Source: Betaproteobacteria bacterium (GTDB lineage Bacteria > Pseudomonadota > Gammaproteobacteria > Burkholderiales > Casimicrobiaceae). From it: DNA of 40,308 nt. Below, piece after piece: positions 1,230 through 28,857 of this stretch. Both the position numbers and the translations under genes were made by a program. The stretch is from positions 12,917-53,224 of the forward strand of contig PLYG01000275.1 in NCBI GenBank assembly GCA_003153335.1, in the 5' to 3' direction. The stretch's first letter is position 1; every line of letters begins with the position of its first letter. The notes below the pieces were generated by a model. It searched no databases. It worked only from the letters and a program-made list of their open reading frames with translations, and was not told the DNA's origin.

Positions 1230-1396
1230 TCGTAGGCGTCAGGTCACACCAATGAACCGTCAGCGTGGCTTTACCAAGGTGGCGCGGAAAGCCCGGTCGT
1301 TAAGGGCCGGGATGGATAGTGCCGATCTTCGTTGTATACGCAAATTCGGCTGCAATAGACGACTAATACATACCCATGGGCGGGTATAATATAGCG

Positions 1397-2614
1397 ATGC
1401 TACGCCGCCAAGCCTACTGCTTCCGTCTACGCCCTGCCGGGGCCGACGAGCGCGCCTTGCGCCGCTTCGCGGGCGCCTGCCGGTTTGTCTGGAACCGGGC
1501 GCTGGCGTTGCAACAGGCGCGGCATGCGCGCGGCGAGAAGAAGCTGGGCTACGCCGGTCTCACCAAGCTGTTGACCGGTTGGCGCGCCGATCCGGCGACC
1601 GCGTGGTTGGCCGACATTCACTCGCAAGTGCTGCAACAGTCACTCAAAGACATGGAGCGGGCATACAGCAACTTCTTCGCCAAGCGTGCTGACTTGCCAC
1701 GGTTCAAGAAGAAGGGCCAGCACGACGCCTTTCGCTTCCCGCAGGGGATCAAGCTCGATCAGCGCAACAGCCGTATCTATCTGCCCAAGATCGGCTGGGT
1801 GCGGTACCGCAACAGCCGGGTCATGGAAGGGACGATCAAGAACGTGACCGTCACGGCGGCCAACGGCCACTGGATGATCAGCGTGCAGACGGAGCGCGCA
1901 GGGGCGGTGCCGGTGCATCCGGCCACGAGCAGCATCGGGATTGACGTGGGCATTACCCGGTTCGCCACGCTCTCCGATGGCACCGTTTTCGCCCCACTGG
2001 ACGCGTTGCGACGGCAGGCCCGGCATCTCATGCATCTACAGCGGGCACTCGCGCGCAAGACCAAGTTCAGCAACAACTGGAAGAAGGCCAAGGCGCGTGT
2101 TGGGCGCCTGCACACCCGTATCGCCGATTCCCGGCGCGACTTTCTGCACAAAACGACGACCACCATCAGCCAAAACCACGCGCTGGTGATCGTCGAAGAC
2201 CTGCAGGTGCGCAATATGTCGCGCTCGGCGCGGGGCACCACCGCAAGACCGGGCCGCAAGGTCCGGCAGAAGGCCGGGCTGAACCGTGCGATCTTGGATC
2301 AAGGCTGGGGTGAATTTCGGCGCCAGCTCACGTACAAGACGGCGTGGTTGGGCGGGGAGTTGCTGGCGGTGCCGCCGGCGTATACCAGCCAGACCTGTCT
2401 GGCCTGCGGCCACGTGCATGCCGACAATCGCCAGACGCAAGCGCAGTTCCTGTGCGTTGCCTGCGGCTACACCGAACACGCCGATCTGGTCGGGGCATTG
2501 AACATTCTCAGGGCGGGACACGCCCGTTGTGCCTGTGGAGAAGCGGCGCCGTCAGGCCCTTCGCTGAAGCAGGAACCCACCGAAGCGACTGTCCGTGAGC
2601 TTGCTCATGGATAG
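1397..2614 (+). CDS. tnpB: TnpB (OrfB) RNA-guided endonuclease, IS200/IS605 family
   Basis: MLRRQAYCFRLRP is a typical TnpB N-terminus. RuvC motifs are IGIDVGI, VIVEDL and HADLVGALNI. The zinc finger is CLACGHV...CVACGY. ATG 1397 is preferred over 1376. Confidence 0.9.
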   Translation: MLRRQAYCFRLRPAGADERALRRFAGACRFVWNRALALQQARHARGEKKLGYAGLTKLLTGWRADPATAWLADIHSQVLQQSLKDMERAYSNFFAKRADLPRFKKKGQHDAFRFPQGIKLDQRNSRIYLPKIGWVRYRNSRVMEGTIKNVTVTAANGHWMISVQTERAGAVPVHPATSSIGIDVGITRFATLSDGTVFAPLDALRRQARHLMHLQRALARKTKFSNNWKKAKARVGRLHTRIADSRRDFLHKTTTTISQNHALVIVEDLQVRNMSRSARGTTARPGRKVRQKAGLNRAILDQGWGEFRRQLTYKTAWLGGELLAVPPAYTSQTCLACGHVHADNRQTQAQFLCVACGYTEHADLVGALNILRAGHARCACGEAAPSGPSLKQEPTEATVRELAHG

Positions 2615-2660
2615 CGCCGTAGGAATCCCGGTCGTTCACGGCCGGGAGGATATCAATGCT
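2480..2660 (+). ncRNA. Predicted omega/reRNA scaffold of TnpB (position inferred, not folded)
   Basis: In characterised TnpB elements the guide RNA derives from the tnpB 3' end plus the right end. The right-end hairpin lies at 2627-2646. Boundaries are inferred only. Confidence 0.25.
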
Positions 2661-2899
2661 CACTTCTTCTTTGCCTTCTTCTTCTTTACGTCGTGGTTGT
2701 TCACCAGACTGATGCCAAAGCCGTACGCGCGGCAAACTGCTTTGAGTGTTGAGAGGCGGGGATCGATCTGGTAATCGTTCTCCATCTCCCACAGCGTGCT
2801 CTTGGCCAGAGTTGTCTCTTCCGCCATTTGATCGAGGGTCAGCCCCTTCTTCTCGCGGCTGGCGCGCATCAACTTGGAAAGAGATTGCTTCCGTGTCAT
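2660..2899 (-). CDS. Small XRE-family HTH protein with Lys-rich tail
   Basis: MTRKQSLSKLMRASREKKGLTLDQMAEETTLAKSTLWEMEN is an HTH_3-like sequence. ATG 2899 has GAAGG upstream. An alternative start lies at 2974. This is the last gene of a minus-strand operon. Confidence 0.7.
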   Translation of the reverse strand: MTRKQSLSKLMRASREKKGLTLDQMAEETTLAKSTLWEMENDYQIDPRLSTLKAVCRAYGFGISLVNNHDVKKKKAKKK

Positions 2900-3084
2900 G
2901 GTAGTGACCTTCGATGCGCCCGAACGTGGCTTTTTCCGGGCAATCTGAACCACGGAAGAGGAAGAGGTCGGCATTGGACCCGCCTTATAGAAAGGAAACC
3001 GCAGGAGAATGGTATGCGCTCGAATGGGTGGGGTCAATAGGTAAAATACCCTTGACGCGCCACCACTCAAGAAAAATGTCTATA

Positions 3085-3483
3085 TCACTCGACCGATTTT
3101 GACGTATCACTCGCCCGATCAAAGACGGGCTGCCAAACATCGGAAAGCGGGTGAAATTGCCGCTGACGGTAGGATGCTGTGGCTTCGTACAACCGATAGT
3201 CACTGACCACCTCCATCGCGTCGAGCGGTAATACGACCGTCGGCTCAGCTACGCCGACTCTCCATGTCTGCCGTATTCCGCTAACGAACGGCAGGACAAA
3301 TAGTACCAAACCATCTCTCGGAATTGGCGGCATTTGCTTAGTATAAAAGCGAATTTCCCAATGGAGAACAGTTCCGATTGCATTTCTCAGATAGTGAAAC
3401 CGCACAATTCGGTGCGTGTGCACTGCAAGAGAGCGGGCTGCTGCCAACGGCTCACGGTCCGGTACTGACGCCTGCGATTGCAC
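3085..3483 (-). CDS. Hypothetical protein (GTG start), directly upstream of the XRE gene
   Basis: 132-aa ORF with ordinary composition, starting 9 nt after the stop of the upstream gene. No clear RBS and no recognisable motif. Confidence 0.45.
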   Translation of the reverse strand: MQSQASVPDREPLAAARSLAVHTHRIVRFHYLRNAIGTVLHWEIRFYTKQMPPIPRDGLVLFVLPFVSGIRQTWRVGVAEPTVVLPLDAMEVVSDYRLYEATASYRQRQFHPLSDVWQPVFDRASDTSKSVE

Positions 3484-3492
3484 GAAACAATT

Positions 3493-4071
3493 TTACAATG
3501 CGGCCGAATGAAAACGAGGTGCGGCACGGTAAGATATATCACCTAAACGAACGCTAGCCACCACCCATCTTGGACGCATTGGCAACCTATCCAAAGCAAG
3601 GAATCGCTCATGGAAAATCATACTTTCCCCCCCAGGGACTACGTCGGGCATCGGGGCATGTCGGCGACCCTGCTCAGCCGATTCCTGCTCGGGTTGTCCA
3701 ATCAGGCAAAGCAGGCGGGCCGCGTCGCGACCAAGAGCGAGATCGCTGACCTCGTGATCGTCGCGGTCGAGGATGGGCGACCGAATGAGCTGCCCCATGG
3801 TGTGCTGCGGATCAACCTTCCGGGCGCCTTGTTCCTCGGGATACTCCGCTGCGGAACGGTCACCGTGTCGCGCACCCAAGGCCCATTGCAGCGCGTCTCG
3901 GGCGCCAATGCGATGCGTGGCCACTAGCTCGCACCCGGACATCCTCGCGTGATGTCGGGCGTGATCGTGGGCGAGCCCCGGTTCCGTGTTGACCTGACGG
4001 AACTCCGCAATCTGACCCGTGGTCAGCGACACCATCTCCGTCAGATAATAGCGTTGGCAGGGGCGCCTCAT
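3493..4071 (-). CDS. Hypothetical protein
   Basis: 192-aa ORF whose ATG overlaps the upstream stop (ATGA at 4068-4071), consistent with translational coupling. Confidence 0.55.
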   Translation of the reverse strand: MRRPCQRYYLTEMVSLTTGQIAEFRQVNTEPGLAHDHARHHARMSGCELVATHRIGARDALQWALGARHGDRSAAEYPEEQGARKVDPQHTMGQLIRSPILDRDDHEVSDLALGRDAARLLCLIGQPEQESAEQGRRHAPMPDVVPGGESMIFHERFLALDRLPMRPRWVVASVRLGDISYRAAPRFHSAAL

Positions 4072-27835: not shown

Positions 27836-28333
27836 ATGAGTGCGAACAAGCTCTACGACGCAGCCAAGCATCTGGTGCCCTCACTGCGTTTTGCCCCAAC
27901 TGACCCATCGCTCTACACTAGCTTTTCAGTGGTCTATCACCCGACCGGGATCGTGTGTTTTTTCTCGCACTATCGAATCGGTTCCCTGCTGCTCACCCGC
28001 GCCACCCCCGACGAAGACGGGACGTGGCACATCGAAACCGGGTACAAAAGGCACGTCGATGACCTGTTCTTCTTGGGCTTCGAGGATTTCGGCGAGTTGT
28101 TCATGCATCCGGACCCGCAGTCGTTTGCTTTCGAGTATTACCGCGAAGGCATCCGCAAGTTCCTGCGCGCTCTCGACGCAGCCGCGCGCTTTGAAACGCA
28201 GCGCATTCCCGAAGAGTTCTGCGCCGTTCACGGTCAGAACAATGGACGCGTCATCATCCGCCTGACCACAGCGCTCCGGCATCGCATCGCTGTTCCTACC
28301 GCCGGGACCTACCCCACCCTGTATCCTTTCTGA
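27836..28333 (+). CDS. Hypothetical protein
   Basis: GGAG lies 6 nt before ATG 27836. An alternative start lies at 27824. Confidence 0.6.
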   Translation: MSANKLYDAAKHLVPSLRFAPTDPSLYTSFSVVYHPTGIVCFFSHYRIGSLLLTRATPDEDGTWHIETGYKRHVDDLFFLGFEDFGELFMHPDPQSFAFEYYREGIRKFLRALDAAARFETQRIPEEFCAVHGQNNGRVIIRLTTALRHRIAVPTAGTYPTLYPF

Positions 28334-28346
28334 CTGGAGCAACCCA

Positions 28347-28736
28347 ATGAACACCGCTGCAAACTGGTTCATCCAGAATAAGCTGCAACGGGCCCAGTCG
28401 GCCTTCACCACGGCAATGAGCAGAATGCGTCGTGCCCGGAACTTGCGTGAGTTGATGCAGGGCCGCAACGTCCACGTCGAGTCCTTCGTCCACTGTCTGG
28501 TCCGTTCTGAAGAATCCCGCGCAGATCGCCTCCGCGAAGAACTGGCAACCACGATGGTCGAAGCCCACCTCAAGGAAATTGAAACCCTGCCACTGGACCA
28601 ACGCCAAGCAAAGATTGGCGAATTCATGCGGCGCGACTGGTGTTTCCTGCGGGGCAATGAACCGCGTCTTTACCGCCGCATCGAAGTCGAAAGCGCCCGA
28701 CTCACGCGCGACCTGCCACGACCGCCGTTGCCCTGA
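28347..28736 (+). CDS. Hypothetical protein, helical and Arg/Glu-rich
   Basis: RBS CTGGAG before ATG 28347. 129 aa. Confidence 0.6.
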   Translation: MNTAANWFIQNKLQRAQSAFTTAMSRMRRARNLRELMQGRNVHVESFVHCLVRSEESRADRLREELATTMVEAHLKEIETLPLDQRQAKIGEFMRRDWCFLRGNEPRLYRRIEVESARLTRDLPRPPLP

Positions 28737-28764
28737 ACCAAGATTCCCTCCGGTTTTTCTCTCT

Positions 28765-28803
28765 CTCCCCTCAAGCCCATCGACTTCGTCTTTGGGCTTT
28801 TTT
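28765..28803 (+). terminator. Conserved terminator module, copy T2
   Basis: CTCCCCTCAAGCCCATCGACTTCGTCTTTGGGCTTTTTT. Confidence 0.75.
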
Positions 28804-28828
28804 CATGGGGGATTCCACGTTTTGCAAA

Positions 28829-28857
28829 TTGCGTATATGCCCATAATAGGGGATAAT
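28829..28857 (+). promoter_or_regulatory. Promoter-operator copy P7
   Basis: TTGCGT (28829-28834), a 17-nt spacer, then GATAAT (28852-28857). ATGCCC-ataata-GGGGAT lies at 28837-28854. Confidence 0.55.

Follow-up and report, generated by a model that had tools for sequence, protein, structure and literature searches.

A putative multi-promoter operator regulon, most likely run by a small XRE protein, on a large mobile element

One repressor acting at many operators of a mobile element is a well-known principle. C1 of phage P1 and gp71 of mycobacteriophage L5, with its stoperators, each act through many sites spread over tens of kilobases and control replication and accessory genes; these sites are asymmetric, and many of the L5 sites act inside transcription units and not in a promoter spacer. 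Repressors of the XRE/Cro-C1 type bind palindromic operators in or beside core promoters. In the IncP-1 plasmid RP4/RK2, KorA, a dimeric helix-turn-helix (HTH) repressor of 101 amino acids (aa), acts through a symmetric operator that is present at seven promoters, its own among them; the operators fall into high- and low-affinity classes, and accessory operons are switched off along with those for replication (PMC2665229). Here we describe a stretch of 40,308 bp from the betaproteobacterial contig PLYG01000275.1 (the window), in which a palindromic operator is built into the core promoters of seven transcription units of what appears to be a large mobile element. A 104-aa XRE-type protein encoded in the window, protein B, is the most likely repressor. 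Compared with the known systems, the unusual features are the systematic and apparently leaderless layout of the target genes, the carrier's operator in the tnpB promoter of a resident insertion sequence (IS), and a second motif at some of the promoters.

The pattern ATVCCC-N6-GGGDAT, i.e., AT(A/G/C)CCC-N6-GGG(T/G/A)AT, matches the window at 1370, 4852, 5921, 7345, 10895, 18654 and 28837, while 0.02 matches were expected from 100 dinucleotide-preserving shuffles of the window. The original prediction of seven palindrome copies abutting a −10 box is thereby confirmed; its coordinate for the topB copy, 18653, was one base off. Relaxing the pattern to CCC-N6-GGGNAT revealed no further site, and allowing up to three mismatches to ATNCCC-N6-GGGTATAAT added a single weak match at 39391. 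The abutting −10 is TATAAT in five of the seven sites, TATAGT at 7345 and GATAAT at 28837. A −35-like hexamer (TTGCGT twice, TGGACA, TAGACA, TCGATA, TGGCAT and ACTAAT) lies exactly 17 nt from the −10 in every site. It had been claimed for only five copies and at 17–18 nt; the shared TTGCGT pair stands, while the extent was too narrow. The order is invariant: −35-like hexamer, 2 nt, AT-N-CCC, N6, GGG, and then the −10. The 18-bp dyad AT-N-CCC-N6-GGG-N-AT occupies the 17-nt spacer and has the TAT in common with the −10. All seven sites are intergenic and directed at a downstream gene start, as judged from the open reading frame list and independent gene calls, in agreement with the claim that every copy faces an operon start. 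The four top sigma-70-like scores in window positions 1–20000 correspond to four of these operator sites.

The module was compared across the window and four further loci (L309, L178, L307 and L304; ~95 kb in total for the five), referred to below as family loci. These contain 17 matches in 94.8 kb. In 1.81 Mb of fetched loci unrelated to the family there is one match, with none in the 1.55 Mb of these that have GC above 0.55; the motif, for which a check of chance occurrence had been proposed, is rare in this DNA. When IMG/VR was scanned with the exact patterns of the operator and of the second motif, matches came singly per contig and at about the chance number, which made the scans uninformative. 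Literature searches with the motif strings retrieved no described operator of this type. None of the 18 family sites departs from AT, CCC and GGG, the N6 spacing is kept 18 times, and the 17-nt spacer with an adjoining −10 and a TTGACA-like hexamer is found in all 18. The base counts of the −10 are T14 A18 T17 A18 A15 T17, and the −35 begins with T14, T/G and G15. Each of the seven window sites and the 18 family sites thus has −35 and −10 hexamers 17 nt apart, within the 16–18 nt of a sigma-70-type promoter. The dyad has the layout of a repressor operator within the core promoter: it is symmetric, it holds a fixed position between −35 and +1, and it is conserved across promoters and across relatives. 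A hairpin or cruciform reading of the dyad was ruled out, as the variable arm positions do not covary. Complementarity between positions 3 and 16 is seen in only 4 of the 18 sites, and positions 7–12 are without consistent symmetry, which suggests that a two-fold symmetric protein recognises the sequence of the arms.

Conservation of the module is best seen where the surrounding DNA has diverged. With TopB as the query, a protein search retrieved six relatives at 63–72% identity. The closest of these, L178 (72%), carries four module copies, and its topB site at 9879 reads TTGACA-tt-ATACCCACATTCGGGCATAAT (TTGACA-17-CATAAT). In the alignment of the topB upstream regions of the window and L178 (A1), the only conserved blocks are the operator-promoter and a second block of 19 nt. 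The search with protein B found L307, which is syntenic with window 2660–9164 at 60–66% protein identity (protein B, a 180-aa protein, Metallophos, SLOG and GHKL). Its orthologous sites are located at 6693 for the divergent operon (A2), at 5596 for SLOG (A3) and at 3890 for GHKL (A4). At the orthologous sites of L307 and L178, the flanking intergenic DNA is barely alignable while the operator-promoter block is kept. The locus L304 belongs to a different-looking element; its 13 kb share only protein B with the window and have two sites beside it. L309, the adjoining contig across the IS, has two further sites, one at a DnaG-like primase and one at another operon, so that the regulon reaches past the window. 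One operator type is thus found at distinct operons, with seven promoters in the window and two in L309; the primase, topB, GHKL, SLOG, DUF5131 and tnpB promoters are among those covered. Three TopB relatives (L181–L183, 63–66% identity) are without the motif, and topB lies inside an operon there. The preservation of the module at orthologous promoters supports the earlier proposal of one regulon under an element-encoded dimeric HTH repressor, as far as this can be judged from comparison of sequences.

The same comparisons bear on the idea that the copies stem from a promoter cassette that duplication or recombination has spread, with the palindrome as a functionless passenger. The segment TATAATGCAGT downstream of the −10 is common to window 18654, L178 9879 and L307 6693, which would fit such spreading. 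Nevertheless, the N6 cores, −35 hexamers and flanks vary between copies while the arms do not, and the arms are kept at orthologous sites after 30–40% protein divergence, over which a passenger would have decayed. We find the cassette explanation barely credible.

The position of the dyad suggests the sign of regulation. With near-consensus hexamers and an optimal 17-nt spacer, a bound protein should repress rather than activate. A protein bound at about −30 to −10 would exclude RNA polymerase, which by textbook inference argues against activation of MerR type or of class I/II. MerR-type activation needs spacers of 19–20 nt. It has also to be asked whether the dyad is an activator site or an element intrinsic to the promoter and read by a special RNA polymerase or sigma factor. 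Its GGG, at −15 to −13, coincides in part with the extended −10 (G at −14), and the right half of the window is almost free of sigma-70-like promoters, so other promoter classes probably exist on the element. However, the symmetric AT/CCC and GGG/AT arms play no part in known sigma recognition, promoters of this quality need no activator, and a site in this position would occlude the polymerase; we regard this explanation as very unlikely.

We therefore return to repression, and consider it probable that a multi-promoter operator regulon is conserved on a large mobile element and most likely run by protein B. In the proposed mechanism, an element-encoded dimeric protein would bind the dyad, which is made up of the spacer and the first three −10 bases of strong sigma-70-type promoters, and block RNA polymerase. 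At least nine transcription units would stand under one switch, the seven in the window together with the primase and one operon in the adjoining contig. The repressor would be the 104-aa XRE protein B, and a weaker site in its own promoter would allow autoregulation. The promoters would fire on entry into a repressor-free cell and be turned off once B accumulates, as is known for global repressors in plasmids and phage-plasmids.

The window codes for four XRE-type proteins, as had been stated: A (330–1229), B (2660–2974, minus strand), C (21621–21902, HTH_26) and D (23160–23690, minus strand). One of them, B, co-occurs with the motif in three lineages. It belongs to the XRE/Cro-C1 domain class by Pfam (HTH_31, 2.5e-8; HTH_3, 1.7e-7), its homologues are 70–77% identical, and its gene lies 0.3–4 kb from motif sites in the window, L307 and L304. 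The segment LAKSTLWEME, including the recognition helix, is invariant across the B homologues while the tails vary. The B promoter of the window, TTGACC-ccACCC-ATTCGA-GCGCAT-ACCAT, has CCC-N6-GCGCAT in place of the operator, and that of L307, TTGACC-cgCGCCC-AAAATC-GGGCAT-AAGAT, has CCC-N6-GGGCAT; such degenerate operators in its own promoter indicate that autoregulation may be possible. Matches of the B sequence in the PDB are the N-terminal domain of CapH, SinR, ImmR and ClgR, and the top Foldseek matches of the B model are DdrO, CapH, ClgR, SinR and P22 c2, at probability 1.00. By these model comparisons, B would share the five-helix HTH fold of DdrO, the CapH N-terminal domain, SinR, ImmR and the P22 c2/434 repressor; the CapH N-terminal domain is 38% identical to B over ~60 residues. 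Unlike those XRE repressors, B has basic N- and C-terminal tails and no C-terminal oligomerisation or cleavage domain, a partner peptidase of ImmA/IrrE/CapP type was not found in the window, and the operator is unrelated to the radiation/desiccation response motif (RDRM), SinR and 434 operators.

Several observations weigh against B, or against a single repressor. The proximal promoter of B in L304 has no operator-like sequence. The structure model is of moderate confidence (pLDDT, the predicted local distance difference test, of 72–84 in the HTH), and B has no obvious separate dimerisation domain. L178, with four sites, has no B homologue in the 18.6 kb fetched. All B loci belong to one element family, so that the co-occurrence with the motif could reflect shared ancestry, and ~95 kb were seen of elements exceeding 100 kb. 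Finally, a second motif lies 33–60 bp upstream of four operator-promoters, and control may for this reason not rest on a single protein. The binder could instead be C, D, A or an unrecognised small protein of the element, with the repressor regulon otherwise the same. Four XRE-type proteins are indeed present, the sequence seen is a minor part of the element, and C, encoded in the operon driven by the 18654 site, could be autoregulated. On the other hand, L178, L307 and L304 all bear the motif, yet tblastn with A, C and D retrieved no homologue from any of them; the topB operon of L178 lacks C, the promoters of A and D have no operator nearby, and A is situated beyond the IS, where the other assembly has a different flank. 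A binder other than B is accordingly regarded as unlikely. Protein B is most likely the repressor of the operator, on evidence that is suggestive, not decisive.

Beside the B homologues of L307 and L304, ~125 nt upstream, there is a palindrome CGAACGA(G/A)CGTTCG (GAAC-N4-GTTC; L307 9876–9887, L304 9878–9889). It resembles a LexA site of the Cheo-box type and is absent from the window.

The dyad is reminiscent of published CsoR boxes. In Bradyrhizobium, TATACCC-N5-GGGTATA overlaps the −10 boxes of two divergent promoters, and csoR is transcribed as a leaderless mRNA (PMC5057107). The Streptomyces CsoR consensus is ATATACCCCTNAGGGGTATAT, and binding requires TAC-N9-GTA, with the A of TAC needed (PMC3902906). 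CsoR boxes have 5 bp between CCC and GGG and are also written as TACCCC-N3-GGGGTA or TAC-X9-GTA (PMC3902906, PMC5057107). The near-identical arms (ATACCC...GGGTAT), the overlap with the −10 and the leaderless mRNA invite the suggestion of a host- or element-encoded CsoR/RcnR (DUF156) repressor on the dyad, with a metal- or stress-responsive regulon. The geometry differs, as CsoR needs N5 and the essential TAC/GTA while all 18 sites here have N6 between the triplets and the A of the left arm (position 3) is present in only 7 of them; in addition, primase, topB, tnpB and GHKL have no link to metal homeostasis. No DUF156 regex signature was found in six-frame translations of the five family loci and no PF02583 among the precomputed Pfam hits. 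The CsoR-box reading was ruled out on the N6 spacing and the lack of a DUF156 gene in the ~95 kb of family sequence, and we hold a regulon run by such a protein to be highly improbable.

Among functional systems, KorA, with KorB and TrbA, would be the closest analogue of B, as a small element-encoded HTH repressor with seven operators. The KorA operator, GTTTAGCTAAAC, differs from this dyad. KorA is not of the XRE/Cro-C1 type; in Pfam and NCBIfam, B matches HTH models of XRE type and no others, without homology to KorA or TrbA. A KorB-type partner was not identified here; the second motif lies upstream of four promoters. Many target mRNAs are apparently leaderless, in contrast to the KorA system. 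Unlike the dispersed-operator regulons of phages, no phage structural genes were seen among the window proteins.

In 8 of the 18 family sites an ATG lies exactly 6 nt past the −10, and tnpB, the primase and the gene at 10922 are among them. For the 10922 gene and for the primase, which begins 6 nt past TATAAT in L309, the gene caller selected the same starts. The tnpB ATG at 1397 follows the −10 by 6 nt, the HTH_OrfB_IS605 domain begins at residue 1 from this start, and the start aligns with those of homologues, which carry a −10-like hexamer 6 nt upstream. As this distance leaves no room for a Shine-Dalgarno sequence, leaderless mRNAs are implied at tnpB, the primase and the 10922 gene, and the layout is an independent support for the TATAAT boxes as real −10 elements. 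In three plasmid IS relatives (L147, L148, L149) and in window 1385–1399, a −10-like hexamer precedes the tnpB ATG by 6 nt (four out of four), and leaderless tnpB expression may thus be general in this IS605 subgroup.

The copy at 1370 lies between the left-end hairpin and tnpB, and hence within the IS (1271–2651). The element belongs to the IS200/IS605 family by its OrfB_IS605 and Cas12f1-like TNB domains, subterminal hairpins and short-target insertion; the hairpins, CCCGGTCGTT(AAG/CAC)GGCCGGG, match at both ends. The location inside the IS had been noted correctly and taken as a sign that the copy may be coincidental. The latter part does not hold, as a second, 99.5%-identical IS copy in L309, with another left flank, carries the same operator site. 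Both copies begin directly after TTAC, and that of the window is inserted just 3′ of gene B. In distant IS relatives (~65% TnpB identity) the −10, the 6 nt and the ATG are kept, the CCC-N6-GGG arms are not. The chance of a full match in the exact register is ~3e-5 by our own estimate. From these comparisons we conclude that the IS lineage would have acquired, or been selected for, the operator of its carrier. The first 1270 nt of the window, with XRE protein A, differ from the L309 flank (1–9895; primase, DUF1643), which agrees with the synteny of L304 and L307. Either the left end of the window belongs to a second IS locus, or the assembly was joined across the repeat here.

The window is near-identical to wood-metagenome contigs. 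Two metagenome contigs, of 64 kb and 70 kb, can be fitted together at the same IS, in which each of them ends, and the element is therefore probably larger than 130 kb. The best matches of TnpB and primase are beta- and gammaproteobacterial. Elsewhere the element has left few traces: a megablast search of PLSDB with 20 kb of the window gave nothing, scans with TopB of GTDB genomes and JGI metagenomes gave only remote relatives (≤36% and ≤42% identity, respectively), none with the motif, and tblastn of TopB and primase against phage genomes gave remote matches only. Scans of the window for tRNA and Rfam families yielded nothing, and most of its proteins are without assignment in PHROGs, PADLOC and Pfam. 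A wider picture can be drawn tentatively, and in its full extent it is doubtful: a proteobacterial element of more than 130 kb with a largely leaderless, repressor-gated regulon that is switched on in a newly entered, repressor-free cell, a resident IS605 that has wired its gene for an RNA-guided nuclease, tnpB, into the repressor circuit through the operator in its promoter, and the strand-specific CCGTCTCGNCCGNCA as the site of a co-regulator or the mark of a second promoter class. If true, the activity of the IS would be licensed by the repressor state of the carrier element.

For a lineage mostly without gene-family assignments, these data offer a testable map of at least nine promoters with likely starts, an 18-bp operator and a named candidate repressor. 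Replication genes (primase, TopB) would be grouped with the accessory SLOG, GHKL ATPase, metallophosphatase and DUF5131 genes as a co-regulated set, and the grouping gives a lead to what these genes do in establishment or counter-defence. The data also bring out a group of apparently leaderless genes in an element that looks proteobacterial. The positions of the features are collected in Table 1.

Table 1. Operator-promoters, protein B and the insertion sequence in the window.
Feature	Position	Strand	Details
IS tnpB operator-promoter	1362..1390	+	−35 ACTAAT 1362–1367; operator ATACCCATGGGCGGGTAT 1370–1387; −10 TATAAT 1385–1390
Minus-strand operon operator-promoter	4849..4877	-	TTGCGT-gt-ATTCCCACTTTCGGGTATAAT; genes 4834–3085, functions unassigned
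cpYpsA/SLOG operator-promoter	5913..5941	+	Precedes SLOG gene 5977–6588 and 187-aa gene
GHKL ATPase operon operator-promoter	7337..7365	+	TAGACA-17-TATAGT; operon 7422–10684
10922 pair operator-promoter	10887..10915	+	Genes 10922–11257 and 11254–11487
topB operon operator-promoter	18646..18674	+	TGGACA-17-TATAAT; operon 18753–23068
DUF5131 operon operator-promoter	28829..28857	+	TTGCGT-17-GATAAT; operon 29018–31750
Protein B own promoter	3009..3037	-	TTGACC-17-TACCAT; spacer with degenerate operator CCACCC-ATTCGA-GCGCAT
XRE/Cro-C1 HTH protein B	2660..2974	-	104 aa; Pfam HTH_31 and HTH_3
IS200/IS605-family element, tnpB only	1271..2651	+	tnpB 1397–2614; hairpins ~1284–1303 and 2629–2648; target TTAC

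The second motif, CAGTCCGTCTCGNCCGNCA with the core CCGTCTCGNCCGNCA, is found in the window at 9201–9219, 10428–10446, 18609–18627, 21863–21881 and 27708–27726, with weaker copies at 31367, 36536 and 37656; L178 has nine copies and L307 two. It is always on the coding strand, mostly intergenic and often directly past a stop codon, and upstream of topB it is conserved between the window and L178. It could be the site of a co-regulator or belong to a different promoter class.

Two of the operator-promoters are followed by leaders with their own features. The 5′ leader of the GHKL ATPase contains a hairpin-forming CAGTGGTCGCCCACCATTGCTTGTGGCCACTG (7371–7402), which is near-identical in L307 (~3830–3870, minus strand), where the GHKL relative is 66% identical. 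The promoter of the DUF5131 operon, which contains a 113-aa gene, DUF5131, a 272-aa gene and a 127-aa gene, lies ~20 nt past a conserved terminator-like repeat (28765–28806). The site at 28837 is followed by a 160-nt leader (28858–29017) with a T-arm-like GGTTCGAACCC / GGTGGGTTCGAACCCCATC and a multi-hairpin fold; the fold does not reach significance (z = −0.8), and the sole Rfam match is well below threshold.

Other repeats were also observed. The terminator-like CCCTCAAGCCCATCGACTTCGTCTTTGGGCTTTTTT, ~42 nt long and on the plus strand, occurs in eight copies (27642, 28765, 32502, 34050, 35696, 36377, 37123 and 38444), which lie between genes in the right half of the window; sigma-70-like promoters are almost absent there. 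An intergenic element of ~95 nt is present in three copies that are 82–87% identical (window 9274–9367 and 21997–22088; L309 2847–2941). It has a predicted conserved stem-loop with a few compensatory changes, contains the CCGTCTCGCC core and has no Rfam match; from the predicted fold it may be a structured RNA or a leader. Clusters of the 14-nt iterons TTGCACTAAGCGCA / TTGCACnnTGCAC at 39801–39957 and 32966–33000 may represent an origin, a partition site or the binding array of another regulator. An island of lower GC (52–55%) at 11500–15000 is without an operator site. Its genes, on the minus strand, code for a RadC fragment, a 219-aa protein, a ThsB-like TIR protein and a trypsin-SLT fusion, and the island looks like a cargo or defence insertion.

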